Of a stretch of DNA of 64,000 bases, positions 1 through 64,000 are shown piece by piece. The stretch's first letter is position 1. Every line of letters begins with the position of its first letter. Made by a program: the position numbers and the translations under genes. The stretch comes from Auanema rhodensis (lineage: Eukaryota; Animalia; Nematoda). The notes beneath the pieces were generated by a model that was not told where the DNA came from, did not search any database, and saw only the letters and a list, made by a program, of their open reading frames with translations. Where the stretch lies: positions 9,858,001-9,922,000 of the forward strand of contig OZ059898.1 in assembly GCA_964057225.1 (NCBI GenBank), written 5' to 3'.

Positions 1-3000
1 CAGTTTTGTACACATTTCTTCAAACTTTTGAGATACAAAATTAGATCCTCTATCGGTGATCAGTCGATGAGGCGGTCCGTATATGTATACAAAGTTGCGT
101 AGAAATCTGTCAATTGTTATTTCTGTCGTAATTTGCGGTACTGCTATCGTTGTTGACCATTTAGTAAAAGCATCCTGGATGGTAATAACGTAAGTACAAT
201 TCCTTTTTGACGGGGGAAAAGGTCCCATTACATCCATATGAACTCGTTCAAAAGGCTTGGTCGGTATTTCAAATTGACCTATTGGCTGTACTGTCATAGA
301 ATGTGGGTCCTTCTTCCTTTGTGCGCATTTAATGCAGTTTTTGATATATATCATGATATCATTTTGCATGTTGGTCCAATAAAATCTCCGTAGGATAGCT
401 TCTTTAGTTTTATTAATTCCTTGATGCGCTGCGATTGTAGGATCTTCGTGAAATAATTCTATTATCTCGTCCTTGATTGGATGATCTTGTGGCACAACGA
501 TTGCAGGATGTGGTTTCTTGTCTGTTGGTTTTGTGTAGAGTAATCCATTTATAACGCAATATCTATCGTTAGAGACCATTTTCTTTTGCGTTCTATATTC
601 GATGTCCGCGATTGTTTTCTTTATCCATAGAGTATTTTGTTGAATTTCTTTTATAGCAGGTGTATCAATAGTATTTATTCTGATCGATTCTGCGTTTTTC
701 TTTTTCTTCTTTTCCGGCTTTGCATCATTTGCTTCATCGCCTATATAACGTGACAATGCATCACATACTTTATTGAGCTGGCCCTCTCTGTACCTTATCT
801 CAATGTCGTATTCTTGTATTACTAACTGAAATTTAGCAAGACGACCAAATAGGTCTCTGCGAGTTAGTAAACTTGTGAGAGGGCGATGGTCAGTGATACA
901 TATAGTATGCGTTCCCAGTATGTATGTGCGAAATTGATTCAGTGCGTATACTAACCCTAAGGCTTCAATTTCGATTGGTGCGTAATTGCGTTCCGCTTTT
1001 ACCAGTTTTCTGCTGGCAAATGCGATAGGATGAAGATGCTTCAATGGTTGCGTGGGATCTTCTGGTTGCAATAATACTGCGCCCACTGCTATGTTGCTGC
1101 CGTCACTCTCGATAATGAATAATCGATCAGATTTTGGTGGACTTAATACAGGCGCTTGGGTGAGACTTCTTTTTAATCGATCTACAGCTTCCTGATGTTG
1201 CTTTTCCCAAGCGAATTCGGTATCCGTCTTTGTCAAATCGTACAATGGGCTTGCGATACTTGCAAAATCTTTAATGAATTTGCGAAAAAATCCAACCATT
1301 CCTAAGAATGCGCGAACGCCTGTTGCGTTCTTTGGTGCCGGATATTCTTGTATCGCAGCCACTTTTTGAGGGTCCGGTTTTATTCCTTCTCTTCCAATTA
1401 TTAATCCGAGAAATTTTACTTCTGGTTGAGCAAAGGCGCATTTCTTTAACTTAATTTTCATTCCCAAACTTTCGACCGCATGTAATAATTCGTCGATATC
1501 TTCAAGGTGTTGCTTTCTTGTATCAGAGATTATCAGCAGATCGTCCAAGTATACAAATAATTTGCAAGAGCATTTACTTTGCAAATATCTTACTGCTGTT
1601 TGAAAAGTATGAGGGGCTCCGCAGAGACCCATAGGCATTTTTTTATATTGATACGTGCCTGATGTTGTTGTAAATGCTGTTAAATGACGATCAGATTTAC
1701 GTAGTGATATTTGAAAAAATCCTGATACTAAATCGAAGTTTGAGAAGAATTGAGCTCCAGCTGCCATGTCAACTATATCCGATATACTTGGTATAACGTA
1801 TGTTTGTTTACGCGTGACACTATTGAGGGCTCGAAAATCTGTCACGAACCTATATGTCTCATCCTTCTTCTTCACTAGCACAGCAGGGCTATTGAAGAGG
1901 GATGTAGAGGGTTCGATTATGCCTTGCTCTAGCATTTCTTTTACTTGCTTTTCCACTTCTTCCTGTTTACCAAGTGGAATCCTCGTTATTCTTGACCTTG
2001 GCATGTCCATATCCGATCTTAGTGGAATTGTATGCTCAATGGGTCCTTTAAATAGACCTATCTTCCTATCTTCATTAAGAAAGGCCTCACGATGGTTCTT
2101 AACTATGTTTGTGAGCTCGTGCTTGTCTTCATTATTCAAATCTGCTTTATCCAGATTAAGGTCATTCATAAAATTTCTTGGAAAGTGGGGTAATTTATTC
2201 TCCCAATCTGCTTCTGGTGGAATATATGGTTGCATAGGGTCTTCTTGTATTGTTTGCCAGCTTGGTACTTCTCCTATTGTTGCCTGCCCTATGACTGAAT
2301 TAGCTTCCATAGCTAATGTTTTGTCCGTATTGTTACGGAAAACTACATATACTCCACTTGTCTCACGGAAAGCTGTTGGATAACTTGAAGCTAATGCATT
2401 TCCGTTGTCCCCTAAGATTACCACTTCGTTTGATTTGAGTGGTCTATCAGCTTTGATTGGAATAGTGGACTCTTCATCGGGTTGTATGATTCTTTTCTTC
2501 AAATTGATGATATTTACTGTTATTGCCGTTTGTTTAATGGCGTCCTGTTCAATTAAAGGGAGTGCGTAATTTCCGATCTCTAGCATCTTTTTCGATGGTT
2601 TTAAACTGACATCAATGTTTTCACTGTCGAGCGTGCTCATAAAGTCCATCCCAATAAGAGCAGGGGCTGGGCAATCACAGTCATTTGAGACCAAAAAGGT
2701 ATGTTCTATCTCATAGCCAGCAATTTCGATGTTTAAATTTATTTTTCCGTATAATGTAAACGTTGTTTTGTTTGCTGCCATTGCCACTAATCGTCGCTTT
2801 TTGACGTGTTGGGCCATGTTCAGGTATTTTAATGTCGATAGCCTGACATATGAGACTGACGAGCCTGGTGGAATGAATGTTACGAGCGCCGGGTAATACT
2901 GCTTCATTATATTTTCTGGCATTGGTTGGTCTGGGCGGCTAACGAGTTCTAATGTTTCCTCGTAGCCTGGGGGCTCGTTGTCTGCTCTTTGAATATGCAT

Positions 3001-6000
3001 GACTGGTAGTGGCATTGCTTTGAAAAAGTAAAATTTTCCGGCAAAGATGGTAATTATGATTGCTGCAATGATTAGAACAGTAGATCCTATTAATATTAAG
3101 GTTCTTTCAATTGTCCCCATTAAGAATTGTTTTATGCTATTCCAGGCTGTAGTTGTGAACTCAGTTGCTTTCGAAATATAATCGCTGCCCTTTTTCAAAA
3201 GAATAAAGGCTGACGTTATCTTTGGGTCGTTGTGAATCGTATTTAGTACGTGATTTTGTCGTATTGAAGCTAAACTAGCTCCATACGCTATTGCGGTAGT
3301 CATTGAATAGACTCTTGATGAAAGATTAGTATAAAGATGAGCACCTGTAAATTTTAAAGGCGTAACTTTATGTTGGTGAGCTCCATCAAAAAGTGTGATG
3401 GGATTGACTTCCGCAGACCCATTAATGTTCATCCATTCCCCGTTTTTCTCATAAATATCAGTTGGTACGTGTTCGCAGTCGATTTCTTTCCCGTACGAGA
3501 GTAAATCTCTTGATCCCGGTGCTGCGAAATATAATTTGTTGTCTTCGGTTGTTACTGGTGTCTCTAAGTAACATGTTTCATTGATTTTATGAGAGTGGTG
3601 AACGGTTTTAGGCTCTATTGGTAGGCATATATGAACATGAACTATTTCGCTGCCCACGAAACGCGCTGCTATGTCTTCTCTGCCAAGGATTGTTCTCATT
3701 GCTATGGTTGGCTCTATTTGGAGAATTGAACGCCACAATTCGAGATATCTATTTTGTATCTCGCATATGGATTCGTAAGATTCCATAAAATGCTTTTGCA
3801 ATTCTTCCTGTATAAGAGTGGTTGCATATTGTAGATGATCTTGCGCTATTCTCTGAGATATATTCTCTTTATATTGTATCTCGTTGTTTACTTTGGAGCC
3901 TATATAATGTGCTTGCGCTTGTACTGCTTTCGTTTCAATCTCCAAAGGTGGTGATGACGTTCTCTGCTTTCTTTGCGATCTTAAAGACATATCTGTGACC
4001 GTTGCAAACGTAGTAATAGGCTGTTCTTTGTGAACACCATATATTAATGTAACCGTTGTTGGCGCGCGCGTGGATGTTATGGTTTGAGTTGTATCGATTT
4101 CTGGCGTTGTTTGAGGGTCCTGGATTAGCTTTGTTACTTCCGTTGTTGTCGTTATATATTCCGTTTTGTCTGTCAGGCGTCTGGTTGAGTAGGGAGGTGT
4201 TCTTTTATCCTCTAGTAGCGGTAGAAAGGTTTGAATGAGAAGATTTCGTGTATATTTGTTAGGACTTTTTGTTTGTTGATGGGGCCCAACAGGTATACCA
4301 AAATTATTCTCCATATCTCGATATAATTTCTCTATATCTGGCAGGATAATAGTTGGTACAGGCAGATGTCGAAATCTTTCATCGTCTGCTCTGGCCGCTG
4401 TTTGATTGGGTTTTATCGTACGTAGTTTGAGGACTTGGTGATATAGGTCAATTGTTTCTTTAATAATCAGTTGTTCCTCTTCGTTATTAGTTGATAATAC
4501 GGGCCTGATTGGCGGCATGTTTACAAATGCTTTCAAAACTTCTTGTTTTGATGGCACCGACATGTTATTTTGAGCGAAAATGGTCGGTGTAAATGCCAAC
4601 TCGAGCGCTATACTTTCGGTTCGCTCTCGATAACTTCCTTCTTTTGTGAGTATTTTTTCGTCAAATTCTTCTGCTGTTAATCTGTCGCCTATCTGCTCTA
4701 AAAGTTGCAGGGAGGTGAGGTATTTAACGGCTCCTCTTGTGGTAGCTGCCAGTTCTTTTTGGGCGAAGAATTGAAGCATTGCTTCTTCCGGGTCGTAGAA
4801 TTCATATATTTTTAAGAATCTTTCTATTGATCTATCCGAAGTAGTGCTTCGTAGGAAGAATTTGAACTGCTCGGGATGTGCTGAGATCCACTTAACGATA
4901 GAATATGTTGGATCTATTGTCCGTCTGGCTCGAATTATAGGAATTATTTGTGATATCCCAGGGTTACTCATTACTGGACGTAAAAATGGGTATGGGCATA
5001 TGTTCAATGTTAAAGTTTCGTAGTCTTCTTGTTCTTTTATCCAGCTTTCGTCCAATTGCAGTGCGCATTGCGCTATAGCCCTTTTTTGACGCTTAGCTGG
5101 CAACTTTTTATATTCTCTTTCAATTAAGTTGTGTATATTACTGTCATTTGGATATTTGGGAAAGAGTATATAATTGCCCGTGGTTGATTGAAATATAGGT
5201 TGCGAAAAACATGATGTAATCTGTTTTGGAATTTGTTTATTGTCGATAACAAGGGCTGACTGCGTATTGGGAATTAGTATTATGCTGTCTCCAATGATGG
5301 CATCGTATTCACTCATGTCTATGTAGTTGCATCTCTGTTCGTATGATTGGATTTCCCAGATGATCATTGAAGTATTGGATGCGCATTGGCCATGATGTGC
5401 AAGACAGCCTTCCGTATTGAGTAATAGATTTGTCAATATGGTGTCGTCTGGCATCCTGGTCATAACGCCTCTTTCCAAAACCAGTCGTTCTTTTTCTTCG
5501 CATTGTTCGTAATTGAATGAGCGCGCTGGAGAGAATGTAGGTTCGGTTGTCGCGTATGTCAAGCTATCCAATTTAATCAGGTCTTCTGATTTCCATTTAC
5601 GGTCGCGGACAGCCAGTCTACATTCGTTTTCTGTTGTTGGCTCAATTCGAACAATGGAGGAGTTATGATCTCTTAAAAATAGCAAATCCCTGATGCATAT
5701 TTTATGTATTTCTTTTGAACATCTCCATGAATCCCATTCGTGAGCCGTCTGGTTTCTTGTATACAGATGTATGTTTGTGCGGAGGACATGTTTGGTAGGT
5801 GGTATTGTGCATTTCCTCAGGGGTGGGGGTATAAGGAGGGCTCCACCTGTAGCTTTAGTGCACATCTGATAAGCATCAGTTATAGTGATTAGTGATAAGA
5901 TCACTGATAAAGCTACTGCTAGTGTTAAGGGGGATATCAAGGTCAAATTATTGACTCTTGAGCCTCTTCCTCTACCTCTATTATTGTTGTTTCCCCTGAA

Positions 6001-7920
6001 GGGATTATTACCGCGTTGACGGTTATCACTCTCCTGATTACGTGATAAGTTGTTATTTCTTTGATACCAATTTGGATTTGAGAAATTTCTACCGCGATTA
6101 CCAAGATTGCGGTTTCTTGCGAAAGAATTTTGCAGATTTTGTGGTTTCTGATTATTTGATGAATTTTGATAACTTTGATAATTTTGATAATTTTGGTAGT
6201 TTCTATTGTTAAATGATTGATAGCCTCTGCCGATTCCTCGCCTTCCGGTGTCGCGCCTGGGAGGGAATGTTCTATCGATTGCGTTAACCAGTAGCGCCTG
6301 AGGGTCGGCTACTTGGTTAGCAATTGATTCCTCCCATCTGGCATTATCAATTGCCTCGGCAAACGTTTTTGGTTTAGCTCTGATTACCCCCGGGCGTATT
6401 GTGTTTTTGAGACCGCGTAGAAAGGTGGATCTAAGGATATGGTCTTTGTGTGGGTCTGTATGTGAGAAAGCGTTTAAGCTTAGGCTTCGTAAAGTTTGTG
6501 CAAATCCATCTACTGATAGCTCGCCTTGGGTGGAATTCTGTAGCGTTATCAGCGCCGGATCTTGATTATACTCTGGGCATAGCCTAGAGGTAAGTTCTTC
6601 GATGAGAGTATTCCACGAGCCAGATGTCTTGATAGTATCGCTAAGCTGTGTATAAGCTTCTTCAGCTCGTTCGTTTTTGAGAAGTAATGGTAAGATTGTT
6701 AATCTTTCGGGCATAACTAAGCCTAAGGCGTTTGCAAAGGTGTTAAACTTGGCCACGAAGTCTCTAAAGTTGCGACTTCCGTCGTATATAGGGCAATATG
6801 GGGAGCTTAATGCCTGAGCAATGGTAGATTTACCCGCTCCTGGAAGCCGTGATGTTTCAGTCATTTCGGATGAGATGCCCTCAGGGTATGTGATAGGTGA
6901 TATTATCACTTCGCTCCCTGTTGGATCTTGATGAGTGTTTTCTATTGCCTTAGGGTTTCTGCTAGAGGAGCCTATTATAGGTGTAGTTGTTGCGAAACGG
7001 GCTCTTGGAACCTGGATGACTTTACCAGATGCCTGAGGCGATGTTCTATCAGTTGATCGTGAGCTAGGGATCGCACTATCTGATCTGTTAAGATTAGGAT
7101 TATGTGAAGAAAACCGGGGTTTTGCTGTTCCGCCGGGTGTTGTTTTATCGCCTGGGGATAAGTTTAAAATCTTTATCAGTCGATTTGTTAAAGATCTTTT
7201 GTTTTTAAACTTATCAGTTGTTAATGATAAGGGTGAAGCTTCTTGTATGCCTTCGAGGCTGGCTTCTGCTGACGAAGTTTCTGTTGCGCGCTTACTGGGT
7301 GTTTTTGTCTTCCGCTTATTAGGGATATTCTTTTTGATCTTATCAGTGATTTTTGATAAGGTTGAAGGGTTGTCACTAAGTTGGGTGGGTTCTAAAGTTA
7401 GCGAATGTGGTTGATTAATAGGCGTGGAAGGCGCTTGCGGGCTTTGTGTTAACCCGAGGGATGGGGAAGGTGCGTTATCAGTGATAACTGATAAGTTCGA
7501 CGCGTTTGGGCCTGGGGTTACCGGTGAGGCAGATGCGGTTGTCGGCTTTTTCTTTTGAATTTTTCGCAAATTTTTATTAGTATCAACTGAGCGTACCTTG
7601 GGATTTGTAGTTGGAGTTTGAGTGCTGTCGTCGGCTATGATGAAGTCCGGGTCTTCGTCGGTGTCGTCAGAAGGTGAATATGTACCTTCTCGGGGAGTAT
7701 AGAACTTGTCGACTTGCGGCTTCGGCTTCTCGTCTGGTTGGTGCGGTTCTTCTATTTGAACACTGAGAAGTCGGGTGCGGCTTCGGGTACGACTTGCGAC
7801 AGTAGCGTCACTGTTGATATCGGACGGGTAAAGGGCTGGGAAAGCCGATGAGAATCTTTTGGCCACCTTTGTAGGACTTTTGGTTTGGAAAAACCGAGAA
7901 TGGTGAGCTACGTGTGGGAT
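1..7920 (-). CDS. Gag-Env-Pol polyprotein of element A (partial, runs off the window in integrase; protease catalytic DSG deleted)
   Basis: Manual translation; all segments checked share one frame: IPHVAHHSRFFQTKS (7920), METSRLPGAGKST region (ATG 6864), signal peptide ...ITDA|YQMC (5871), RQKR (5080-5091), CEIQNRYLELW, TM ~3031-3105, RT YLDD (~1540-1551), RNase H, IN HHCC and ITDRGSNF at the edge. Its absence from the ORF track is consistent with there being no stop before the window edge. Confidence 0.9.
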   Translation of the reverse strand, partial: MPHVAHHSRFFQTKSPTKVAKRFSSAFPALYPSDINSDATVASRTRSRTRLLSVQIEEPHQPDEKPKPQVDKFYTPREGTYSPSDDTDEDPDFIIADDSTQTPTTNPKVRSVDTNKNLRKIQKKKPTTASASPVTPGPNASNLSVITDNAPSPSLGLTQSPQAPSTPINQPHSLTLEPTQLSDNPSTLSKITDKIKKNIPNKRKTKTPSKRATETSSAEASLEGIQEASPLSLTTDKFKNKRSLTNRLIKILNLSPGDKTTPGGTAKPRFSSHNPNLNRSDSAIPSSRSTDRTSPQASGKVIQVPRARFATTTPIIGSSSRNPKAIENTHQDPTGSEVIISPITYPEGISSEMTETSRLPGAGKSTIAQALSSPYCPIYDGSRNFRDFVAKFNTFANALGLVMPERLTILPLLLKNERAEEAYTQLSDTIKTSGSWNTLIEELTSRLCPEYNQDPALITLQNSTQGELSVDGFAQTLRSLSLNAFSHTDPHKDHILRSTFLRGLKNTIRPGVIRAKPKTFAEAIDNARWEESIANQVADPQALLVNAIDRTFPPRRDTGRRGIGRGYQSFNNRNYQNYQNYQSYQNSSNNQKPQNLQNSFARNRNLGNRGRNFSNPNWYQRNNNLSRNQESDNRQRGNNPFRGNNNNRGRGRGSRVNNLTLISPLTLAVALSVILSLITITDAYQMCTKATGGALLIPPPLRKCTIPPTKHVLRTNIHLYTRNQTAHEWDSWRCSKEIHKICIRDLLFLRDHNSSIVRIEPTTENECRLAVRDRKWKSEDLIKLDSLTYATTEPTFSPARSFNYEQCEEKERLVLERGVMTRMPDDTILTNLLLNTEGCLAHHGQCASNTSMIIWEIQSYEQRCNYIDMSEYDAIIGDSIILIPNTQSALVIDNKQIPKQITSCFSQPIFQSTTGNYILFPKYPNDSNIHNLIEREYKKLPAKRQKRAIAQCALQLDESWIKEQEDYETLTLNICPYPFLRPVMSNPGISQIIPIIRARRTIDPTYSIVKWISAHPEQFKFFLRSTTSDRSIERFLKIYEFYDPEEAMLQFFAQKELAATTRGAVKYLTSLQLLEQIGDRLTAEEFDEKILTKEGSYRERTESIALELAFTPTIFAQNNMSVPSKQEVLKAFVNMPPIRPVLSTNNEEEQLIIKETIDLYHQVLKLRTIKPNQTAARADDERFRHLPVPTIILPDIEKLYRDMENNFGIPVGPHQQTKSPNKYTRNLLIQTFLPLLEDKRTPPYSTRRLTDKTEYITTTTEVTKLIQDPQTTPEIDTTQTITSTRAPTTVTLIYGVHKEQPITTFATVTDMSLRSQRKQRTSSPPLEIETKAVQAQAHYIGSKVNNEIQYKENISQRIAQDHLQYATTLIQEELQKHFMESYESICEIQNRYLELWRSILQIEPTIAMRTILGREDIAARFVGSEIVHVHICLPIEPKTVHHSHKINETCYLETPVTTEDNKLYFAAPGSRDLLSYGKEIDCEHVPTDIYEKNGEWMNINGSAEVNPITLFDGAHQHKVTPLKFTGAHLYTNLSSRVYSMTTAIAYGASLASIRQNHVLNTIHNDPKITSAFILLKKGSDYISKATEFTTTAWNSIKQFLMGTIERTLILIGSTVLIIAAIIITIFAGKFYFFKAMPLPVMHIQRADNEPPGYEETLELVSRPDQPMPENIMKQYYPALVTFIPPGSSVSYVRLSTLKYLNMAQHVKKRRLVAMAANKTTFTLYGKINLNIEIAGYEIEHTFLVSNDCDCPAPALIGMDFMSTLDSENIDVSLKPSKKMLEIGNYALPLIEQDAIKQTAITVNIINLKKRIIQPDEESTIPIKADRPLKSNEVVILGDNGNALASSYPTAFRETSGVYVVFRNNTDKTLAMEANSVIGQATIGEVPSWQTIQEDPMQPYIPPEADWENKLPHFPRNFMNDLNLDKADLNNEDKHELTNIVKNHREAFLNEDRKIGLFKGPIEHTIPLRSDMDMPRSRITRIPLGKQEEVEKQVKEMLEQGIIEPSTSLFNSPAVLVKKKDETYRFVTDFRALNSVTRKQTYVIPSISDIVDMAAGAQFFSNFDLVSGFFQISLRKSDRHLTAFTTTSGTYQYKKMPMGLCGAPHTFQTAVRYLQSKCSCKLFVYLDDLLIISDTRKQHLEDIDELLHAVESLGMKIKLKKCAFAQPEVKFLGLIIGREGIKPDPQKVAAIQEYPAPKNATGVRAFLGMVGFFRKFIKDFASIASPLYDLTKTDTEFAWEKQHQEAVDRLKRSLTQAPVLSPPKSDRLFIIESDGSNIAVGAVLLQPEDPTQPLKHLHPIAFASRKLVKAERNYAPIEIEALGLVYALNQFRTYILGTHTICITDHRPLTSLLTRRDLFGRLAKFQLVIQEYDIEIRYREGQLNKVCDALSRYIGDEANDAKPEKKKKKNAESIRINTIDTPAIKEIQQNTLWIKKTIADIEYRTQKKMVSNDRYCVINGLLYTKPTDKKPHPAIVVPQDHPIKDEIIELFHEDPTIAAHQGINKTKEAILRRFYWTNMQNDIMIYIKNCIKCAQRKKDPHSMTVQPIGQFEIPTKPFERVHMDVMGPFPPSKRNCTYVITIQDAFTKWSTTIAVPQITTEITIDRFLRNFVYIYGPPHRLITDRGSNFVSQKFEEMCTKL

Positions 7921-8261
7921 GTTGATGTAAGGTGCGTAAGATTCTTTTAGATGTGTGTTGGGAGAGAGAGATTCGGGAGCAATAGGATAGTCGTGCTTCG
8001 CTGGGCGATGCGGAGGGTAAATGAGAGGGAGTTTTCCAAATCGTGGCCACCAATCTGACTCCGCCTATCTACCGTAAGCTTATTATAGTTAATGATGTTT
8101 ATCTCTTCTCAAAAACTATTTTTATCCGCTCTTGCACTTTCCGCTTGTACTTGCTTTAATCTCTCTCTTTACGAGTAGCTTTCAATCATGTTTTTATCCC
8201 TCTTTTCTCTCTTGTTTACCAAGCTATATTTTATTATTTTGAGAGCTAAGAATTTTTGAAA

Positions 8262-8797
8262 ATGAGCGTCCAGCCTACTGGAATGACCTTCGTCATGCAA
8301 AAGCTGTATGACGTTATTGTCTTTTATGATGCTGAAGAGAGATTGGCTTATAGGCCCCATCCTGATATAGTATTAATGGTTGGTGCATTAGTCAATTTCA
8401 GTATTTTCTTTTGCTATTTTAGTTTATTGAGGATCTGCAAATGTTCTATTTGGGCAGGGGCCTCGTTAATTTTTCCGCTATGGCGGAAATTGCGCCCGAG
8501 ATTGAGCTCGTAGGGCGTCTCTGCCTCCGTGACCTCTGCGCGCATTCTTATGCCGCTCTCCCGTGTGGACTTGTAGGAAGTCCCTGGAGATGGTATACCG
8601 AGAGGCAGCCTTTATTCTATGAATTATTATGTAAAATTTTGTTTAAAATTTATGTATGTTATGATAGCTCTTCGCTTGGATTGCAGCTGAGGGCCTCACT
8701 GGGGAGAGAGTATCCCGAATACCTCACCCCCAGTTACGAGCCTATCTCTCCTGTTGCAGAGTTTGAGAGACAGCTAGCTTTCAAGTGGGGATTTTGA
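8262..8797 (+). CDS. Putative spliced antisense gene in the leader of element A (exons 8262-8378 and 8423-8797, 163 aa, unknown function)
   Basis: AAAATG start; a 44-nt GT..TTTTAG intron joins two ORF-track ORFs in frame; AATAAA at 8801-8806, 3 nt after the stop. Confidence 0.45.
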
Positions 8798-9109
8798 CTG
8801 AATAAAGCTTGTACTCTGTGTTTTTATTTTTATGCGCTTTGCTCTGTTTTCGTCAAGAAAATGGACTTATGTTTTCAATCTTTTCCTCATTCTTTTTCCC
8901 TTAAATAGCATGTTTTGCTCAAAATGTTTTCGACATTGTGCATGCTAATGAGGTTTGAGGAGAGTTATTGAAAAGGCTGTCCTTTTTCTTGATCAAAATA
9001 AGCAAAAGTGCGTTTTCCTAAGCGAATTTCTTTTTGAAACTGAGAAAAATACGTCTATTTTTAAACATTTCCCATTTACTTAGGATTACTGTAGGAGATA
9101 AGGGGTATC

Positions 9110-9390
9110 TTATGAGTTGAAACAACGAAATGATTTGAGGAAGGTGACATAATCTACGGGGATAAAATCCGTAGCAGTTATGCTTCCGCCAACTTGACCT
9201 GACTGTCAAATAAGAGCTGAGAAGTCTTATTGCAGATTTACCAGGCTTTTTCGGACTAGTGTGGTCTGTTTTTATATTCAATTTATGTAACCGTTTTTGG
9301 TTTCCCGCAAAATAATATGTAAGATGATCTTTTACGTCTGAATATAATAATTTTTCAAAATTCTAGTCCTGACCACAAATATACAAACTA
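9110..9390 (-). promoter_or_regulatory. Conserved structured RNA element in the 5' leader of element A
   Basis: Blocks of identity with 43381-43690 of element B, a 1-nt indel between blocks (non-coding) and compensatory base-pair changes. Confidence 0.65.
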
Positions 9391-9768
9391 TAAACAATTG
9401 CGCGCGTCTTATAAAATTTTTTTGTTCCAATTATCAAACTTCTCTATGCCCAAAAAAAAATGTGAACAATTATAATTTCTCGTTTGGCGAAATTGTCCTC
9501 TATTTCAATCCAAACGTCCTCAAAATGGCATGAGAAGCGGTACAAGATACGATAAAGAAAAGGGTGGACATTCAGACGGTTTTTAAATTGAGGACGGCGG
9601 GCAAAAATTTTATTGGTCCTATCTCGCATTTAAGCGAGATCCCTTGTATCTGTACCTTAAAACAAATTGGCGCCTTCATTTTGTTGTTTCAAGTGGAGGA
9701 ATTTATAATTTAGAATGCAAAAATTGACTTTTACAATAAAAAAAATTTTTTTTTTTTTTTCAAAAGAT

Positions 9769-9789
9769 GAGTTCGAGGTGGAACCTCCA
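9769..9789 (-). promoter_or_regulatory. Primer-binding site (tRNA-Gln), element A
   Basis: TGGAGGTTCCACC-TCGAACTC directly after the LTR; complementary to the metazoan tRNA-Gln 3' end GGTGGAACCT-CCA. Confidence 0.85.
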
Positions 9790-10134
9790 CGTTCCGTTAC
9801 GCTCCTGCGTCGATAATATAAACCATTGTAGTTTATACTATGACGCGCATAGTATTCCTTGGTGTAGCGGTAAGGAATAAAGAGCATAAGGTCAACCATA
9901 AGATAAAAGAGAGAAAGATTTATTGGCATGAAACTACAACAATAATATACAAAGATAAAGATACAATACAATAAGATAAATATAAGTATAAAGACTAAAC
10001 TACAAGCCGTCCATGAGCTTGCTAAGAGGCGAACTCCCGACCAAGGGAACGAGGGAAGGCGGAGCCATTCCTCGGTCCTCTGGTCGTCTGGCTCTAACCC
10101 TTCAGCTACATATATGGGGAGTCCGAATGGAACG
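9790..10134 (-). repeat. 5' LTR of element A (345 bp, CGTTCC...GGAACG)
   Basis: Starts CGTTCCATTCGG and ends TAACGGAACG, as in the element B LTR; U5 is homologous to B. Confidence 0.9.
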
Positions 10135-42566: not shown

Positions 42567-42924
42567 CGTTCCATTCGGATGATCAATGCATTACATTCAT
42601 ATGACGAAGCTGTAGCAGGCGGGTTAGAGTCAGAGAATGCGAGACTGAGAGAAGACGACCCGCCCTTTTCCATATTACAACACTTCAGCTTTGCCTCAGG
42701 GACGATCATGGATGGTTGGTCGTTCTCTCTCTGTTCTCTATTAGTTTAACCTTTACTTAGTTATATGTATCTTATTGTAATCACGTAGATATAATAAACC
42801 AATCTTTCTCGAGTCTTATGTTTATCCTTATGCTCCATGTTTAACCGCTACATCTGGAATACTACCACGCTCATCTTGTAGACTCCATTGGTCTGTAAGA
42901 TCGACGCGGGAGCATAACGGAACG
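42567..42924 (+). repeat. 5' LTR of element B
   Basis: Direct repeat of 53871-54228; termini CGTTCC...GGAACG; AATAAA near 42793. Confidence 0.97.
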
Positions 42925-42944
42925 TGGAGGTTCCACCTCGAACT
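42925..42944 (+). promoter_or_regulatory. Primer-binding site (tRNA-Gln), element B
   Basis: TGGAGGTTCCACC-TCGAACT abutting the LTR. Confidence 0.87.
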
Positions 42945-43380
42945 TATCACAATTTTTTTTTCCTTCTCTTTAATGTTTGTGTTGTTAATTCATTTTCAAA
43001 TTTCTTTCATCTCTCTTTTTCTCATACCATCTACCCTATGTCTTAACACAATACGGAGGGGCCAACAACGTTAAATGGGAACAGAGGCAAGGAATCCTTT
43101 TTTTTTTAAAGAAGGATTATACGTTTCGAGATTATTATTTTCCCGTTTGTTCACAAAAATTCTTTCGTCTGAACCTTTAAATTTCGTATCCTTGCTTATA
43201 ACATCTGAAATGCTCTGTTACCCAACCTTGAAGCTTGATGAGGGCTTTAGGCTGAATTAGTGAACAAATTCACCTAAAGTAATTGTTATTTCGTATTTCC
43301 CACGCTTTCTCCTTTTTAAGGATTAATTTTGGCTTCAAGGAAAGAATAACTTCGGTTATATCTTTATATTTCGTGGATGA

Positions 43381-43690
43381 AGTTTGTTTTGCGATCAGGA
43401 CTATTTTATTTTGCGTTACGATTTCGTTCAGACAAATTTTGCTTCTAACATCCTAAATTTATAATCAGTACGCATGAAAAAAAATTACACGGGAAACCTC
43501 ACCAAAAAGGGAGGATTGTTAATTTATAGATCGCTATAGTCCGAAAAATCCTGTTGAAAAATGTTATCTCGAATTTGAATCATGATTAACACAGGTCGTG
43601 TTGGCTAAAGCATATCGGTTTGGATTTTCTCCCCTTACTGAATGTCACCTTCCTCATACCGTTATTGTTGTTCAGAAGCATAAGACTCAC
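43381..43690 (+). promoter_or_regulatory. Conserved structured RNA element in the 5' leader of element B
   Basis: Homologous to 9110-9390 (minus) with covarying stems. Confidence 0.65.
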
Positions 43691-44378
43691 GCATTGAACC
43701 TTATTCCAACTTTAATACTAGTTCTTGTAATATTTAGCCATTTAACTCTGCTTTTATTTCAAAATTCGATTTCTGATCACGAAATACCTACATTCATCAT
43801 TGCGAAACGCTCTTTTGTAAAACTAATATTACGAATCCCATGACTTTTGTTACAACGAAACATGCGAGCTACACCAAATGTATTTGAAAACCAGATTGTA
43901 AAGAAACAAAAATTATTTTTGGTGACAAAAGAGAAATTGGTGCACATTTATTGTTAAACTGCTCTTTTATCAAAAGCATGTTACGAATTACACCATAAGT
44001 TTTGTTGCAAGATGACACACCACATGGCCGAGAAACTAGTGTAACAAAACATAAGTTTAGTCAGCATGAGGAAAATGGTTGCATACAAATCAGTAAAATG
44101 TGCTGTAATTGAACGAATATTACGAATTACACTAAACGTTTTGTAAAATAACAGCTTGGTCACCCCAGATGTTTTGTGAATCAGATTTTCAACTACAGAG
44201 AAAATACGGAGAGCACCAGAGTCCCGATATCACACAGTAGAAGGCGGATCCATCGCCATTGGCCAAGGCATCGACCTCATTCTCACAAGTTGTCGATACG
44301 ACACCGGTCGCTCTCCAAAGCCTTTCTCATTTTGCCTACATCCTCATCCTTATTCACCGCATTCTTTAACGTCTCAAC

Positions 44379-47300
44379 ATCCCACACGTTACCAAGCACT
44401 CAAGGTTTTTTCAAACCAAGAGTTCTAGCAAGGTGGCTAAGAGATTCCATTCAGCCGTACCTATAAGTACGCATTTCGATTCCCAAGACTCAGCTCCCTT
44501 TACCAGAAGTCGAGCTCGAGCTCAAGACGTCGCTATATTAGAAGAGGAGCAGAAAGTCGACAAGAAGCCGGATAATTTCCTTATTCCTACTACTGATTCT
44601 GTCTCACCTACTGAACAACTAGGCGACCCGGACTACGTACCTACTATAGAAGAAGAACTATCAATCATTGTGGAGGAACAAACACCGATCACTCCTAAAA
44701 AGGTACGCTCCTCTAATTCTAATAAAAATAAGAAAAATCAAAACATCAGCGACGCTTCTCTCTCTCTCTCACTAACCGAACCAACCGATTCCCCTTTACT
44801 TTCAAAAACTTCTAGCGCGGGTGGGCTTAGTTCTCTTAGAAACATTGTTACTGATCTTTTTAACCTTTCGCCTAAAGATAAAACTTTCAACACCAAGCGC
44901 AAAAGCAGATATTCATCAGTCCCTAACATTAATATCTCACCAATTCAACCACCTGCACCAAATACCAGTATTCATCAAACTTCTACTCCCATCTTAACAA
45001 CAACAGACTCACTTCCTAAGGCACCCAATAGACCTATTCCATCCACGCAAACAACCCCTATTTTGGAGACCCCACCAATAACAGGTAGAACGATCAAAAT
45101 ACCATCTACCCGTACGAATAACATCATGACGGAAGCTGTTTCCTCACTACCTGGGGCAGGGAAAACAACAATCGCGCAAGCCTTACTTTCGCCTTACTGT
45201 CCAACTTACGACGGCAGTCGTAACTTCCGTGATTTTACGGGTAAATTCAACTTGTTTGCTAATGCCATTGGCCTTGTTATCCCTGAAAGGTTAGCACTTC
45301 TTCCTTTGCTTCTCAAAAATGAAGCAGCAGAAGAAGCTTACAGACAAGTTCCTGAACAACTTAAAACAACTGGTTCGTGGAATGATCTGATTAGAGCACT
45401 AACATCGAAGCTCTGCCCTGAATATAACCAAGACCCTGCACTTATTAACCTTCAAAACACCACGCAAGGGGAATTGACAATTGATGCATACGCCCAAGCA
45501 TTAAGAACAATGGCATTGAGTGCATTTGCATCTGATGACCCACATAAAGATCAAATACTGAGATCAACATTCCTCAGAGGACTTAAAAATTCTCTAAAAC
45601 CAGCTGTGATCCGAGCAAAGCCAAAATCCTTCACAGAAGCGATTGAAGCAGCTCGCTGGGAGGAATCGATAGTGAACCAAACAACAGACACGCAATCGAT
45701 GTTGGTCAACGCTGTGAACAAAGCACTAGCACCCTTTGCGCGTAATGATGAGAGACGAGATAGCCAAACATTTAATCGCAATTATCAACGCGATAACCAA
45801 ATGATAAGAAATAATCAAAATTATCAAAATAATCAAAATTATCAAAATTATCAAAAAAATAAAAACTTTTCTAATTTCAATAATAATCGAAACCGTTACG
45901 GTTCTTTCGCTAATAATAATCGCCGTACAAATTATAACGAACAAGATAATAGGCAATCGAGTTCTGATTGGCATCAAAGAAATTATAATTTTCGTCATAA
46001 CAACCAACGAGGTAGATTCAATAACAACAACGGACAAAGAAGAGTTCAATTCAAAAATCCAAGAGACAACTCAAGAGGAAGAGATAGAAGCTCAACAAGA
46101 ATAAACTCTGTCACCCTTTCGCCTTTGACGCTCACAGTTATCATGGCAATAACAACAGCAATATTCTTGCCCTGTGCATCTACATATCAAATCTGTACAA
46201 GAGCAACAGGAGGCGCATTACTTATGCCACCAACAATCAGAAAATGCAGATTAACAGAGAAAAACCATGTGCTACGTACAGAAGTTCATCTGTACACAAG
46301 AAATCACACAGCACACGAATGGGATGCGTGGCGTTGTTCAGAGGAAGTACACAAGTTATGCGTACGAGACCTGCTATTCCTCCGCGATACGAACAGAACA
46401 ATAAATAGAATACAGCCTATAGGAGAGCGCGAATGCAGACAGGCGATCCGCGATCGCAAGTGGAATAACATAGAACTGCAACGCATTGATAGTATCACCC
46501 AAGCAACTCCGGAGCCCTCCTATGACCCAGCGCGCGCGTTCAACCGCGACGCGTGCGAGGAGCGGTCACGTCTAATATTAGAGCGCGGAGTCATGACCCG
46601 TATGCCTGACGATACAATATTGTCAAACTTAATATTAAACACGGAAGGATGCAATGCACATCATGGTAATTGTGAATCAAGTACATCAATAATAATATGG
46701 GACCCACAAACCACTGCTTCACGTTGTAATTACATCGATATGCATACATATGACGCTATCATTAGTCAAGATACTATTTTAATCCCTAGTACACAATCGG
46801 CACTTATTCTTTCAAGCAAACCAACTCCGAAACCTATTTCTTCTTGCTTCAGGCAGCCAGCGTTCCATACGACATCAGGAAATTATATCATTCTTCCTAA
46901 ATTTCCAAACGACAACAATATAACCACCCTTATTGAAAGAGAGTTCAAAAAGCTGCCGTTTAAAAGACCAAAACGTGCAGTCACCGAAGGATGTTCTTTC
47001 CCACTGGATCAAGATCGGATCAACGAAGTTGAAGATTATGAAACAGTATTGCTTCACGTCTGTCCATATACTTTCCTAAGACCATTAATGAGTAATCCCG
47101 GTATTACTTCAATTATTCCTATAATCAAAGGAAGACGTTTAGTAGATCCAACATACTCTCTAAAGGCATGGATAACATCACATAAAAAAAAATTCGAATT
47201 TTTCTTCAGAATTCAAATAAATGAACATTCTGTTCGACATTTTCTCAAGCAATACGATTTCAGTGATAAAAAAGAAGCTCTGCTATATTATATAGCACAA

Positions 47301-50300
47301 AGAGAATTAGCCATTACTACAAAGGCAGCAATATCATACTTAACATCTGAACAGCTTCTCGAACAAATATCAGATCGTTTGACAGTAATCGAATTCGATG
47401 AAATCATAAGGAAGAAAGAAGGTTCATATCGCGAACGAATTGAAAGCATAGCTCTCAATTTAACCAATACACCAGTTATAATTGAAGAAGGACTGACAGT
47501 TCCATCACGACAAGAAGTCCTACAAACGTTCATACAAATGCCACCAATAAGGAAACGTATACTAACTGACGAGGAAGAGAAGAAAAGCGAATTCATTAAG
47601 GCAACGATCAATTTACTAAGAGAACTAAAAACCCTCACAACAGTACGATGGAATAAAACTGCAGCATTTATTGATGACAGAAAATTTATAAAATTGCCAG
47701 CATCACGACAATTCATGCCAAATACAGATAAACTATTTTATGACAGGAAGAATAATTATGGAATACCGATCGGTCCACACCCTAAGCTGATCAAGCCCAG
47801 CAATCTTTCAAAGAAATTATTATTGGAAATATTTTTACCCCTGCTCAATAATGTAAAAACACCTTATACATCGAGTAGGATAACACAAGAACAACTTCAA
47901 ATCTTAATGGCAGAGAAAAATGAAACAAATTTTCGGCAAATCGCAACGCGGACATCCAGCGTCGCGGCAGGCGGCGCGGCTAGCGGCGCGGTTGTGACAC
48001 CAGTCCAACCTTTGATCGAACAGAAGGGAACAATCCAATCAGTTACCACAATACAGCCGCATATAACGAACAATCCTCACACAAATGCAACAACCACCAC
48101 AAGAGCACCATCATGGAGGCAACAGCCATCAACAACGGCGCCTCACACGACCGCTGCGACAACAGCACGCACAACAACATCAACCGCTCGTTCGCCAACA
48201 ACAACAAGAAGCTATGCCATATACAAAGACGCACAGATTCCAAAAATACAAGAGACAACCGAAGCCTCTCCAACATTGATTCGAAAAAACCGAGCTTCCT
48301 CAACACCATCAGTAGAAACCTCAAATTTAGTGGAAGCAAATGCGAGATACATAGCAACGAAAATTGACTCGGTACAAGAGTTTCGTCAAAATATATCGAA
48401 CAAAATAGCCCAAGATCATTTACAGTATGCTACTACAATGATCCAAGAGGAATTGCAGAAACATTTTGAAGAATCATACGAATCGATTTGCGAGATACAA
48501 AATCGGTATCTGGAATTATGGAAATCAATTCTACAAATTGAACCAACAATCGCAATGCGAACAATACTGGGAAGAGAAGATATAGCCGCACGGTTTGTAG
48601 GCAATGAAATTTTGCATATACATGTATGCCCTACAGTGCTAGAGAAAACCATTTATCACAATCACACCGTAAATGGCACATGCTATCTCGAAACCCCAGT
48701 CTGGACACAAGACGGACAGTTACTGTTTGCAGCACCCGGATCCAAGGATCTTTTACCTCATGGTAAAGAAATAAGCTGTGATCACGTACCAAGAGATATC
48801 TGGTCTAGCGAAGGTGAATGGAAAGGAATTAATGGGACTGCAGACGTCAATCTTGTATCAATGTGGGACGGACTTCATCACGAAAAAATAACACCATTAA
48901 AATTCACCGGAGCTCACTTATACACTAATTTATCGTCTCGTGTATACTCAATGACCACAGCCATAGCTTACGGTGCGAGTTTAGCATCGATTCGTCAGAA
49001 TCACGTTCTTCACACAATTCACAATGATCCAAAGATATCAGCTACATTCAGTGTACTAAAGAAAAGTAGCGACTACATATCGAAAGCTCAAGAATTCACC
49101 AAGAGCACATGGAAGTCATTCATCGATACAATTGCAGGAACGATTGAGCGAACACTAATAACGATCGGTGCAATTACATTATTTACCATCATACTCTTTG
49201 TGATAGGTTTCATTGTAAAGATCTATTTCTTCAAACCAGTAGGCATACCAGTTATGCATATTGCACTCAAAGATCACGACAGTGATCTACCAACATACGA
49301 AGAAACTTTGGAATTAGTTAGTCATCCGGATCAACCGATTCCAAGACACATAATGAAACAATACTATCCATCAATGCTCACATTCATACCAATCGCACTA
49401 CCATTAGTTTGCACGATTTCCAAAAAGAAAGATCAAGCACTACCACTTCTATGGATGACTGTTAATGATAGACTGATCCTAACTTTATGGGACTCAGGTT
49501 CGTCCGTCAGTTACATAAGAATATCGACACTACACTACTTAGCTTTGAATGACTTTGTTAAGAAGAATACATTAAGAGCAACAACAGCGAACGGATCAGA
49601 ATTTGTATTCATTGGTACTATCGACTTAACCGTCGAAATAGCCGGTTACGAAATCGACCATACATTCTTCATATCAGACGACAAAGACTGTCCATCGCCA
49701 GCGTTGATTGGATTAGATTTCATGAAAACACTTGACTGTCAAAACATTGGCATGAAACTAAGACCATACAAAAGAACACTGGAAATTGGAAATCATGTAG
49801 TACCTTTGGCTAGCGGAATTAACGGGGATATTAACAGGATATCAAAAACTGTTAATTTGATAACCTTGGAGCCGCGGAGTCTACTTCCTCGACAAGTTTT
49901 TAATTTCCAAGTCCAATTAGAGAACCCAATCGGAGAAGACTTAATCGCTATGATTAAACCAAACGACAGTACTCCTCTCTCACCTCGATACGACACAGCA
50001 TTTCGCGATGTTAACTCCATCAATATCCAATTCCGGAACAATTCTAAAGAATTCATAGAAATACCGGCCGGCACTGTGATTGCAGAAGCCGAAATAGGAT
50101 CTATACCGGACTATGAAATCTTCTCAACAGAACAACAGTACGACTATATTCCACCAGAAGCAGACTGGGAAGGCAAATTACCTCACTTCCCTGGTGATTT
50201 CATGAAAGAACTTGACCTAAAAGAGGCTGATCTTACGCAACGACAAAAAGACGAACTACGAAACATCATTCGTCAACGTAAGAAGGCATTCCTCAATGAA

Positions 50301-53138: not shown

Positions 53139-53513
53139 CTCATGAGATTTTATTGTAAATTGTTTTGTAATAACTTTCTTTAAAGTAATACTAGAACACA
53201 AATTTTGTAACGACTCCTCTAAAACAAGTCACTCTTAAGTCAAAAAGTAAACTAGAGCATAATGAACACGGGAAATGTGAGAAAATAATTCTTTTATCAT
53301 ATAGTTCGAACCTTCCTAATTTCAACTAACTTCCCCATACTAGATGAGATGAAAAATGAAAGACATAGTTTGCAACAATATCTGAGCAACAGTCTTCACT
53401 TGAGTAATCAATGACTCAATTTGGAAGTTATTTGGTATTACGCAAAACTTTTCTTTTTTTTCTAAACTCACACAAATTGAAACAAACAACCGAGCTCTAG
53501 CAAAAAAATAGTT

Positions 53514-53589
53514 AACTTTTTATCTACACTTGTTGGAGCGTTATGCTTAAAAACTTTTTATCTACACTTGTTGGAGCGTTATGCTTAAA
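53514..53589 (+). repeat. 38-bp tandem duplication in the 3' UTR of element B
   Basis: AACTTTTTATCTACACTTGTTGGAGCGTTATGCTTAAA occurs twice. Confidence 0.9.
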
Positions 53590-53859
53590 AACCTTTTTTT
53601 TTATTATTTTATAAGCACGTTCGCCAATAAAACATAGTCTAGTATTCGTTAAAGAGGGTTAAAACTTTCATAATTTGGTTAAAAAAATTTTTTTAAATTC
53701 TTTTCAGATACTGATGTTTTATATTGTATTATGTTCATATTATAAGAATTTTACGTAAAATATTGTATTGTAACATGTACTTTAATACACACATTAACCC
53801 TTCTGCTACAGTTAATCAAGTCAAAACTTTTGATTGTCGCGAGGCCGCGACATAAACTC

Positions 53860-53870
53860 GAAAAAGGGCA
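53860..53870 (+). promoter_or_regulatory. Polypurine tract of element B
   Basis: GAAAAAGGGCA immediately before the 3' LTR. Confidence 0.8.
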
Positions 53871-54228
53871 CGTTCCATTCGGATGATCAATGCATTACAT
53901 TCATATGACGAAGCTGTAGCAGGCGGGTTAGAGTCAGAGAATGCGAGACTGAGAGAAGACGACCCGCCCTTTTCCATATTACAACACTTCAGCTTTGCCT
54001 CAGGGACGATCATGGATGGTTGGTCGTTCTCTCTCTGTTCTCTATTAGTTTAACCTTTACTTAGTTATATGTATCTTATTGTAATCACGTAGATATAATA
54101 AACCAATCTTTCTCGAGTCTTATGTTTATCCTTATGCTCCATGTTTAACCGCTACATCTGGAATACTACCACGCTCATCTTGTAGACTCCATTGGTCTGT
54201 AAGATCGACGCGGGAGCATAACGGAACG
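53871..54228 (+). repeat. 3' LTR of element B
   Basis: Direct repeat of 42567-42924. Confidence 0.97.
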
Positions 54229-55025
54229 AAATTCCAAAAACAGTAGAATAAAATTGAGAAAGCAACATAAACAGTTGAACGATTTGAAGAGAATTGTAAG
54301 TTTAAGAAAAGAATTAAAGTTTAGCTTTGTCTACTATTAACTGATTATCGGCTGAAATATGGTGACAGTTTTTTATTAAAAGTTTCCATGATTAAGATTA
54401 AACAAAGAAAAAAAAATCAAAGAGAAACACTTCTTGTTTACTTATTTGATTATAACACTTGAAATTCCAACAAAAGTAAAGTAAAACTGTTAAAGCGAGT
54501 AAAACTGTTGAACGATTTGAAGACAATTGTAAGTTGAAGAAAAAAATTAAAGTTTAGCTCTCTCTACTATTAACTGAATGTCGGCTGAAATAAGGTAACA
54601 GTTTTTATTAAAAGTTTCCATGATTTAGATTAAACAAAGAAAAAAAATCAAAGAGAAACACTTCTTGTTTACTAATTTGATTATAACACTTGAAATTCCA
54701 ACAAAAGTAAAGTAAAACTGTTAAAGCGAGTAAAACTGTTGAACAATTTGAAGACAATTGTAAGTTGAAAAAAAAAATTAAAGTTTAGCTCTCTCTACTA
54801 TTAACTGAATGTCGGCTAAAATATGATAACAGTTTTTATTAAAAGTTTCCATGATTAAGATTAAACAAAGAAAAAAAATCAAAGAGAAACACTTCTTGTT
54901 TACTAATTTGATTATAACACTTGAAAATCCAACAAAAGTAAAATAAAACTGTGAAAGCGGGTAAAACTGTTGAACTAAAACAGTCTTTATAAAATATAAA
55001 TGATATATTTTTATAAAAGTGAAGT

Positions 55026-55096
55026 TGCATCGGCCGGCAATCGAACCCGGGTCGCCCGCGTGGCAGGCGAGCATTCTACCACTGAACCACCGATGC
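55026..55096 (-). tRNA. tRNA-Gly(GCC), T-stem variant
   Basis: GATTGCCGG instead of GATTCCCGG. Confidence 0.75.
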
Positions 55097-55889
55097 TTCC
55101 AAAATGTTAGATTGTTTCCGAAAAATTATGAAAAGTCAAGTTCTACTGATTTGAAGAGAATTGTAAGTTTTAGAAAAGAATTGAAGTTCAGCTATCTCTA
55201 CTATTAACTGATTATCGGCTAAAATAAGGTAACAGTTTTTATTGAAAGTTTCCATGATTAAGATTAAACAAAGAAAAAAAATCAAAGAGAAACACTTCTT
55301 GTTTACTTATTTAATTATAATACTTGAAATTCCAAAAACAGTAGAATAAAATAGAGAAAGCGACGAAAAAAGTTGAACGATTTGAAGAGAATTGTAAGTT
55401 TTAGAAAAGAATTAAAGTTCAGCTATCTCTACTATTAACTGATTATCGGCTAAAATAAGGTAACAGTTTTTATTGAAAGTTTCCATGATTAAGATTAAAC
55501 AAAGAAAAAAATCAAAGAGAAACACTTCTTGTTTACTTACTTGATTATAATACTTGAAATTCCAAAAACAGTAAAATAAAATTGAAAAAGCGACAAAAAC
55601 AGTTGAACGATTTGAAGACAATTGTAAGTTGAAGAATAAAATTAAAGTTTAGCTCTCTCTACTATTAACTGAATGTCGGCTAAAATATGGTAACAGTTTT
55701 TATTAAAAGTTTCCATGATTAAGATTAAACAAAGAAAAAAAATCAAAGAGAAACACTTCTTGTTTACTAATTTGATTATAACACTTGAAATTCCAAAAAA
55801 AGTAAAATAAAACTGTGAAAGCGGGTAAAACTGTTGAACTAAAACAGTCTTTATAAAATATAAATGATATATTTTTATAAAAGTGAAGT

Positions 55890-63999: not shown

Positions 64000-64000
64000 G

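Follow-up and report, generated by a model that had tools for sequence, protein, structure and literature searches.

Two long terminal repeat (LTR) retroelements in a 64,000-nucleotide (nt) stretch of Auanema rhodensis contig OZ059898.1 (the window, within which all positions are numbered) carry a tract of 954 nt (element B, forward strand) or 1322 nt (element A, reverse strand) in which AUG is absent from all three frames. The tract lies directly upstream of the first AUG of the Gag-Env-Pol polyprotein, and the polyprotein frame runs through it open, under selection and conserved as protein. We found neither an AUG nor an in-frame splice acceptor that could serve this extension, and the position of the first AUG behind it is conserved among relatives. 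Synthesis of a long Gag is probably initiated at a near-cognate codon (AUC at 44379/7920 or GUG at 44433/7866, given here and below as B/A), with leaky scanning to the AUG at 45126/6864. Which codon serves as the start, and whether and in what ratio two isoforms are made, are points that we infer. The features on which the argument turns are as follows.

44172..45125, + strand: ATG-free zone of element B, 954 nt, C-rich and G-poor
44367..44369, + strand: in-frame TAA of element B, three codons before the conserved peptide, that shuts the polyprotein frame
44374..44447, + strand: conserved N-block of element B, 80% nucleotide identity to 7925-7852 of element A, encoding NIPHV..HSRFFQTKS..KVAKRF
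44379-44381 and 44433-44435, + strand: candidate starts in the N-block of element B, ATC (-3A, +4C) and GTG (-3A, +4G), respectively
44379..45125, + strand: Gag extension of element B, 249 codons, no Met, 37% serine, threonine and proline (S+T+P), no hydrophobic segment
45126..53138, + strand: first AUG (context aacatcATGa) and polyprotein of element B, Gag - herpesvirus glycoprotein B (gB)-like Env - protease (PR) - reverse transcriptase (RT) - RNase H - integrase (IN), in a single frame
6865..8186, - strand: ATG-free zone of element A, 1322 nt
6865..7920, - strand: Gag extension of element A, 352 codons if the conserved ATC at 7920-7918 is taken as the first, conserved GTG at 7866-7864, Met-free, 37% S+T+P
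1..6864, - strand: first AUG of element A (6864-6862, context tccgaaATGa) onward, Gag-Env-Pol, leaving the window at base 1

AUG-free zones upstream of gag

On the plus strand, the ATGs at 44169 and 45126 bound an ATG-to-ATG gap of 957 nt in element B, and on the minus strand those at 8189-8187 and 6864-6862 bound a gap of 1325 nt in element A. These are the longest ATG gaps on their own strands in the whole window, the runners-up being 371 and 480 nt. AUG is thus absent in any frame from the candidate upstream start to the main AUG in both elements; a preliminary description, made by manual scan, had placed the zones at exactly these coordinates. ATG density is 15.7/kb in the remainder of both polyproteins and 16.0/kb (B) or 10.0/kb (A) in the leaders, and the borders of the zones are therefore sharp.

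Base composition predicts 11.0 (B) and 15.4 (A) ATGs where none was observed. With dinucleotide-preserving shuffles the expectation falls to 4.3 and 7.9, and zero-ATG shuffles numbered 25 of 5000 for element B and 0 of 5000 for element A. Among the 64 trinucleotides, depletion was flagged for ATG alone, and the antisense strand of the zones holds 21 (B) and 25 (A) ATGs. A codon-aware null gave P values of 0.018 (B) and 8.8e-4 (A) for the lack of any in-frame Met. When codons were resampled synonymously with the amino acids fixed, out-of-frame ATGs were wholly absent from 169 of 5000 (B) and 1 of 5000 (A) resamples. The absence also covers the 207 nt (B) and 266 nt (A) ahead of the coding start, for which 2.5 and 3.9 ATGs are expected. 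These data indicated that the lack of ATG is far beyond chance in element A alone and in A and B jointly, so that the depletion proposed for computational confirmation in the preliminary description was borne out by shuffles and codon-aware nulls, moderately so for element B alone. The zone is G-poor, and its predicted fold is less stable per nucleotide than that of the downstream gag although its G+C content is higher; such a weakly folded tract would suit scanning.

The extension as a conserved, methionine-free coding frame

Frame 0 contains no stop in 252 codons of element B (44370-45125) and in 400 codons of element A (8064-6865), versus 7 and 24 stops in the other two frames of B and 20 and 33 in those of A. 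BLASTP aligned the two extensions over 128 residues at 42% identity (E 7e-20), with a second aligned part before the AUG. The Nei-Gojobori comparison of A with B, which carries out the dN/dS analysis suggested earlier, yielded a pN of 0.396 versus a pS of 0.63 over 233 aligned extension codons and a pN of 0.151 versus a pS of 0.665 over the first 29; these ratios are semi-quantitative, since synonymous sites are saturated between the two elements (pS 0.6-0.86), and the amino-acid-guided alignment pushes pN down. By these measures the extension is a real coding frame under purifying selection, and the earlier statement that the polyprotein frame is conserved through the zone agrees with the open frame, the E value and a pN below pS. 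What precedes the annotated AUG is an in-frame open extension conserved as protein. Its size had been put at 250-350 residues rich in S, T and P; we found 249 (B) and 352 (A) residues with an S+T+P content of 37%, versus 20% in the remaining polyprotein.

A third sequence has the same layout. In P0106, a partial Auanema protein encoded by a contig of 1654 nt, 292 Met-free residues without a stop (43% S+T+P) are followed by M-T-x4-LPGAGK, whose Met aligns with the first Met of both elements, so that the position of the first AUG is conserved in three relatives. The head of the extension has a counterpart further away: residues 4-17 of IPHVTKHSRFFQTK are identical at 8 of 14 positions to residues 5-18 of ICYSTNHFVFFQTK, the N-terminus of a Caenorhabditis japonica Gag model (P0014). 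The motif there reads I...T.H..FFQTK, and the model opens with a Met four residues earlier. The presence of the head motif at the N-terminus of a distant Gag argues that the head is protein and that the N-terminus lies there.

The extension has no membrane segment, its maximum Kyte-Doolittle value in a 19-residue window being 0.46 (B) and 0.45 (A), and by the same measure no signal-anchor that would send Gag to the secretory pathway was found in either element. The single-sequence AlphaFold model of mean pLDDT (predicted local distance difference test) 38.4, too poor for calling disorder, left the extension without secondary structure save a short helix at 154-160 and placed helices throughout Gag. 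No Pfam family was detected on residues 1-252 of element B. No relatives of the extension were found among proteins of 1607-5114 residues, and none of the element A extension among those of 194-620 residues. An exhaustive protein search returned 103 proteins at E 0.001, and all 14 with E up to 1e-10 start at query residue 254 or later, that is, in Gag only. The ESM Atlas gave no usable match for the extension, a search with P0014 added only a Caenorhabditis brenneri model beginning downstream of the FFQTK motif, and scans of metagenome and viral contigs with the Gag alignment confirmed no locus of relatives.

Start codon candidates and a proposed leaky-scanning mechanism

Similarity between A and B starts abruptly at a 16-nt block, TCAACATCCCACACGT, upstream of which the sequences fail to align. 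The only near-cognate codons conserved in frame in both elements are the ATC at 44379/7920 (A at -3, C at +4) and the GTG at 44433/7866 (A at -3, G at +4). They are the two named in the preliminary description, which also proved right about the peptides it quoted, the TCAACATCCCACACGT block common to A and B, the stop at 44367 (a TAA) and the position of the GTG. For a mouse-cell reporter library (consensus AUG context = 100), PMC5778536 gives values of up to 20 for GUG and 5-10 for AUC and a roughly five-fold boost of GUG by +4G. A weak hairpin downstream of the AUC, GGUUU..AAACC (z -2.4 and -1.5), was set aside as a signal: it simply equals the R-F-F-Q-T codons.

In the mechanism that we favor, the Met-free Gag extension would be started at the conserved AUC, at the conserved GUG in its optimal context, or at both. 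Most scanning 40S subunits would bypass these weak starts and move 0.75-1.05 kb to the first AUG at 45126/6864, a passage that would be possible only through a stretch kept AUG-free in all three frames. One RNA would then give rise to long and short Gag-Env-Pol forms differing by 249 (B) or 352 (A) residues, namely, by a tail rich in S, T and P whose short head (HSRFFQTK..KVAKRF) is conserved and basic. This Met-free, presumably disordered head with its conserved motif could be a Gag module for regulation or targeting. Internal AUGs have no effect on ribosomes that are already elongating. AUG avoidance in the non-coding frames would be needed only if 40S subunits scan the tract, which, together with the need for a start, points to weak initiation plus leaky scanning. 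In both elements the AUG-free stretch begins some 200-260 nt before the coding start, suggesting that the scanned part of the mRNA begins there too.

AUG-rich leaders

Upstream of the zones, each element has a long leader, counted from the end of the 5' LTR.

42925..44171, + strand: leader of element B, 1247 nt, 20 ATGs, its upstream open reading frames (uORFs) all short
8187..9789, - strand: leader of element A, 1603 nt, 16 ATGs, again short open reading frames (ORFs) only

The last uORF of element B runs from the ATG at 44169 to the TAG at 44238 (23 codons), and the last leader ATG of element A (8189-8187) opens a 6-codon frame that ends at 8169. With 16-20 AUGs ahead of the zone, the scanned RNA must start near it, or else ribosomes bypass the leader. 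It is here that the initiation model of the preliminary description needs amending: all of its sequence-level predictions hold, but plain cap-dependent scanning of a full-length LTR transcript cannot suffice with 20 (B) or 16 (A) leader AUGs in the way. An mRNA 5' end near the zone might be generated by spliced leader (SL) trans-splicing or by an internal transcription start; ribosomes might reinitiate after the last short uORF (23 codons in B, 6 in A); or shunting or internal entry might carry them past the leader.

The leader of element A is predicted to fold far more stably than its shuffles (z -9.0). Its predicted helices are long-range, and a large hairpin has its base right at the start of the zone, the nearest uORF ending about 57 nt before the stem; the leader of element B gave a z of -0.3. 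Rfam returned only sub-threshold chance matches (mir-14 at 25.5 bits versus a gathering cut-off of 53, SorX at 17.4 versus 46.6). Inspection of the leaders for repeats showed nothing of note, and Tandem Repeats Finder nothing relevant.

Three sequencing runs with the same species label were available as contigs only; their RNA label is only a guess, and they contain next to none of the words of the stretch. On element B they placed only pieces of a related LTR and leader, and on element A short fragments of related copies, among them 189 nt of extension at 91% identity and a contig that connects a conserved leader patch (described below) with the N-block. No 5' end, spliced leader or splice joint at the zone appeared in these contigs, which cover parts of related copies only.

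Two short leader sequences are shared by the elements. A patch at 43592-43685 (B) and 9201-9108 (A) is 74% conserved, while other parts of the leaders do not align; its core (9136-9170) recurs in contigs of further related copies from the runs of the same species label, in one of which it lies 598 nt upstream of the N-block, versus 1240 nt in element A. To call this patch a packaging or dimerisation signal would be guesswork. Likewise, the 8-mer AGCTTGGT, with AAAATA before it, occurs at 44155-44162 (B) and at about 8224-8217 (A); the last leader ATG is 14 nt (B) or 35 nt (A) further downstream. The match could be chance, which we estimate at roughly 1 in 10, or a mark of processing or of a start site.

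Alternative explanations and points against near-cognate initiation

The long form might be the sole product. An internal ribosome entry site (IRES) or a shunt would then deliver ribosomes to the head of the extension for a non-AUG start, the Met at 45126/6864 would have no special role, and the G-poor, S/T/P-rich composition would account for the AUG desert as a by-product. The leader AUGs do argue for some bypass, the leaders of gypsy and Idefix are reported to have IRES activity, the leader of element A is predicted to be highly structured with a hairpin base at the zone, and composition by itself cuts the expected ATGs to 4.3 and 7.9. Zero ATG in element A is nevertheless beyond composition (no shuffle and a single synonymous resample in 5000 reached it), and the avoidance extends to the non-coding frames and to the 207-266 nt before the coding start. 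Moreover, the leader of element B is without excess structure, the sequence upstream of the conserved block cannot be aligned between A and B, Rfam offers no match, and no short uORF was found to end directly before the stem, which is what shunting requires. We regard this explanation as unlikely.

Conventional initiation on a spliced mRNA, with an AUG-bearing leader exon or a spliced leader joined in frame to the extension, has precedents in that retroviruses splice leaders and that the 2.4 kb spliced mRNA of Cer1 can carry SL1 (PMC3315495). A motif that could be read as an acceptor, AG/CTTGGT, also precedes the last leader ATG by 14 nt (B) and 35 nt (A). In element B, however, an acceptor would need to sit after the TAA at 44367 but before the conserved peptide begins. 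As 44321-44395 contains no AG, no 3' splice site can bring an upstream AUG into frame in front of the conserved head. The first AG after this stop has no counterpart in A, where the nearest AG leads into frame 1, closed after 51 codons. No conserved donor/acceptor architecture was found around the zone, nor a U-rich CAG acceptor at either zone start, and the nematode SL1 primer sequence given in PMC3315495 is without an AUG. An intron, furthermore, needs no freedom from ATG, yet the ATG-free zone continues upstream of the coding start. Taken together, these findings make a spliced start codon improbable.

If the AUG at 45126/6864 were the only start, the zone would be a long AUG-free 5' untranslated region whose open frame is vestigial or fortuitous. 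The conserved position of this AUG is compatible with that, as are the gene models of the nearest relatives (P0003, P0004 and P0010), which begin there, and the fast evolution of most of the extension. A frame with no stop where about 12 (B) and 19 (A) are expected by a hand estimate from base composition is not, given the 7-33 stops in the other frames. The protein similarity between A and B with pN below pS, the Met-free and stop-free extension of the third relative, and the FFQTK head motif common to a distant Caenorhabditis Gag likewise speak against it, and we consider it very improbable. Stop-codon readthrough or frameshifting from the last leader uORF, to which only the in-frame position of the ATG at 44169 in element B lends itself, has next to no chance and is contradicted by the sequence: two stops (44238 and 44367) intervene in B, the last ATG of A is out of frame with seven frame-0 stops in between, and no other frame opening with an AUG extends across the point where the extension begins.

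Near-cognate initiation with leaky scanning has points to answer as well, besides the saturation of synonymous sites and the alignment bias given with the pN and pS values. AUC is among the weakest near-cognate codons, and here it has C at +4; if only the GUG were used, the 18 conserved codons that precede it would go untranslated, in conflict with the head motif of the C. japonica Gag. The 16-20 AUGs of the leader are unexplained by the model, and neither a shunt configuration (a short uORF ending just before a stem) nor a conserved splice acceptor or known RNA element was found at the zone start in A or B. For element B alone, the absence of ATG is only moderately significant, as 25 of its 5000 dinucleotide shuffles are ATG-free too. 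Finally, the contig of the 91%-identical copy has 13 listed differences in the extension (four more near the contig ends are unlisted). Of these, 8 are non-synonymous and none gives rise to an ATG, whereas in gag 2 of 16 are non-synonymous, so that constraint on most of the extension body is weak. What is kept in the extension is the head, the openness of the frame and the absence of ATG.

On balance, we tentatively propose that this lineage gave up AUG for the true N-terminus of its polyprotein, keeps more than 1 kb of coding sequence AUG-free, and uses AUC or GUG with leaky scanning for two forms on an RNA whose leader is removed or bypassed.

Element architecture and group membership

The remaining parts of the two elements that were located in the window are listed below.

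42567-54228, + strand: element B whole, an LTR retroelement within satellite
42567..42924, + strand: 5' LTR of element B, 358 bp, 100% identity with the 3' LTR
42925..42942, + strand: primer-binding site (PBS) of element B, TGGAGGTTCCAC, directly after the 5' LTR, complement of GTGGAACCTCCA (tRNA-Gln 3' end)
53871..54228, + strand: 3' LTR of element B, 100% identity with the 5' LTR
9790..10134, - strand: 5' LTR of element A, ends approximate, from similarity to the element B LTR and PBS and from the satellite end

Outside both elements (10135-42566 and 54229-64000), the window is nearly all satellite, in units of about 230 bp with higher-order periods, and A and B sit in this array in opposite orientations. 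ATG-gap positions in the satellite repeat at a spacing of 6380 bp (26048, 32428 and 38808). Element B is flanked by a GAAAT target-site duplication of the 230-bp satellite, and its frame is uninterrupted from 44370 to 53138 (2922 codons), with no frameshift needed to join Gag, the gB-like Env, PR, RT, RNase H and IN. With identical LTRs, the target-site duplication and this whole frame, element B looks very young and intact, and its identical LTRs and intact frame look like signs of recent activity. In element A, the polyprotein frame is open upstream of the extension as far as 8064. The coding DNA of A and B is about 66-70% identical, and the two are therefore separate lineages of one clade.

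Reportedly, Sacco et al. (2022, J Gen Virol) described endogenous retroviruses of nematodes that are of the GAG-ENV-POL Ty3/gypsy type and have an envelope resembling herpesvirus gB. The Pfam domains of the element B polyprotein are Retrotrans_gag (315-406), gag-asp_proteas (1697-1786), RVT_1 (2043-2201), RT_RNaseH (2292-2398), Integrase_H2C2 (2512-2569) and rve (2586-2681). The viral class III fusion glycoprotein family PF24664 matches residues 1348-1622 (E 1.4e-12, 46.8 bits versus a cut-off of 27), and herpesvirus gB (PF00606) scores 34.9 bits in the same region, under its cut-off of 43. The Env also has a signal-like segment at 586-604 and an anchor segment at 1597-1615. Element B thus combines direct LTRs, a target-site duplication, a PBS and the PR-RT-RNase H-IN order with a Retrotrans_gag capsid, as in Ty3/gypsy elements, and it encodes a class III gB-like fusion glycoprotein between gag and pol. 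This order of GAG, ENV and POL, the envelope being gB-like, is what PMC13524379 reports for nematode Ty3/gypsy endogenous retroviruses ('errantiviruses'), and its supplementary file 1 gives GTGGAACCTCCA as the tRNA-Gln 3' end for Caenorhabditis elements of the group. Elements A and B belong to this known nematode GAG-ENV(gB)-POL Ty3/gypsy group. Supplementary file 1 lists no Auanema elements, and the supplements give coordinates without any sequence that bears the FFQTK motif. In the protein libraries, the closest relatives of Gag come from Auanema sp. and from Caenorhabditis remanei, C. japonica and C. brenneri, which makes a rhabditid the most likely host.

Two further features of element B were noted. 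The C-terminal part of Gag (45780-46130, polyprotein residues of about 470-590) is N/Q/Y/R-rich low-complexity sequence with NYQN repeats and RGR runs; visual inspection of the translation showed no CCHC zinc knuckle there, and Pfam reported no zinc-knuckle match. Within the 730-nt stretch from the polyprotein stop to the 3' LTR, 53516-53590 holds a tandem duplication of about 35 nt (TTATCTACACTTGTTGGAGCGTTATGCTTAAAAAC).

Comparison with known systems

To our knowledge, an AUG desert of this kind would be the first known in an animal Ty3/gypsy element. Among the papers listed in literature searches, none described a non-AUG Gag extension or an AUG desert in such an element, and Sacco et al. 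2022 may bear on the point. At 1-1.3 kb, the desert would rank among the longest leaky-scanning tracts described. If the proposal is true, automated annotation misses 250-350 residues of Gag, since gene models begin at the first AUG, and removal or bypass of the leader (by SL trans-splicing, an internal start or a shunt) would make the RNA that is translated distinct from the genomic RNA that is packaged. The combination of a sense-strand AUG-free run with an open conserved frame could serve as a signature for non-AUG isoforms in other mobile elements.

The glyco-Gag of murine leukemia virus (MLV) has an extension of about 88 residues that starts at CUG and provides the signal-anchor of a glycosylated membrane protein. 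The Auanema elements would resemble MLV and related gammaretroviruses in starting an in-frame Gag extension at an upstream near-cognate codon and in reaching the Gag AUG by leaky scanning, so that one RNA yields two forms of Gag. Unlike in MLV, the extension has 249-352 residues, AUC and GUG as candidate starts, no membrane segment (best window 0.46) and an AUG-free tract of 1-1.3 kb.

With the nematode GAG-ENV-POL group, elements A and B have in common the LTRs, the tRNA-Gln PBS (GTGGAACCTCCA), the Retrotrans_gag capsid, the gB-like Env between gag and pol, and the PR-RT-RNase H-IN order; the accessible text of PMC13524379 makes no mention of a non-AUG Gag extension or an AUG-free tract. Cer1 of C. 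elegans, also a Ty3/gypsy element from a nematode, likewise has gag-pol in a single frame. An acceptor in its 5' region receives SL1 by trans-splicing in some transcripts, whereas the 8 kb gag-pol mRNA is not trans-spliced; neither an env nor an AUG-free extension is described for Cer1 in the part of PMC3315495 at hand.

Rice tungro bacilliform virus (RTBV) and badnaviruses offer a further parallel. In RTBV, ORF I starts at AUU and 90% of ribosomes scan on through 900 nt of AUG-free ORFs, and the leader with its many short ORFs is bypassed by shunting, according to PMC5902531. The AUG-free stretch of RTBV consists of the separate ORFs I and II, whereas here it is an in-frame extension of the polyprotein; a shunt configuration was not found in the Auanema elements, and the host is an animal, not a plant. 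RTBV and the Auanema elements are both reverse-transcribing elements with a long AUG-rich leader, a weak non-AUG start (a candidate one in the Auanema elements) and about 1 kb free of AUG up to the AUG of the polyprotein. Thus, if our proposal holds, animal retroelements and plant pararetroviruses would have converged on one solution, and elements A and B would be an animal counterpart of the badnavirus/RTBV strategy.

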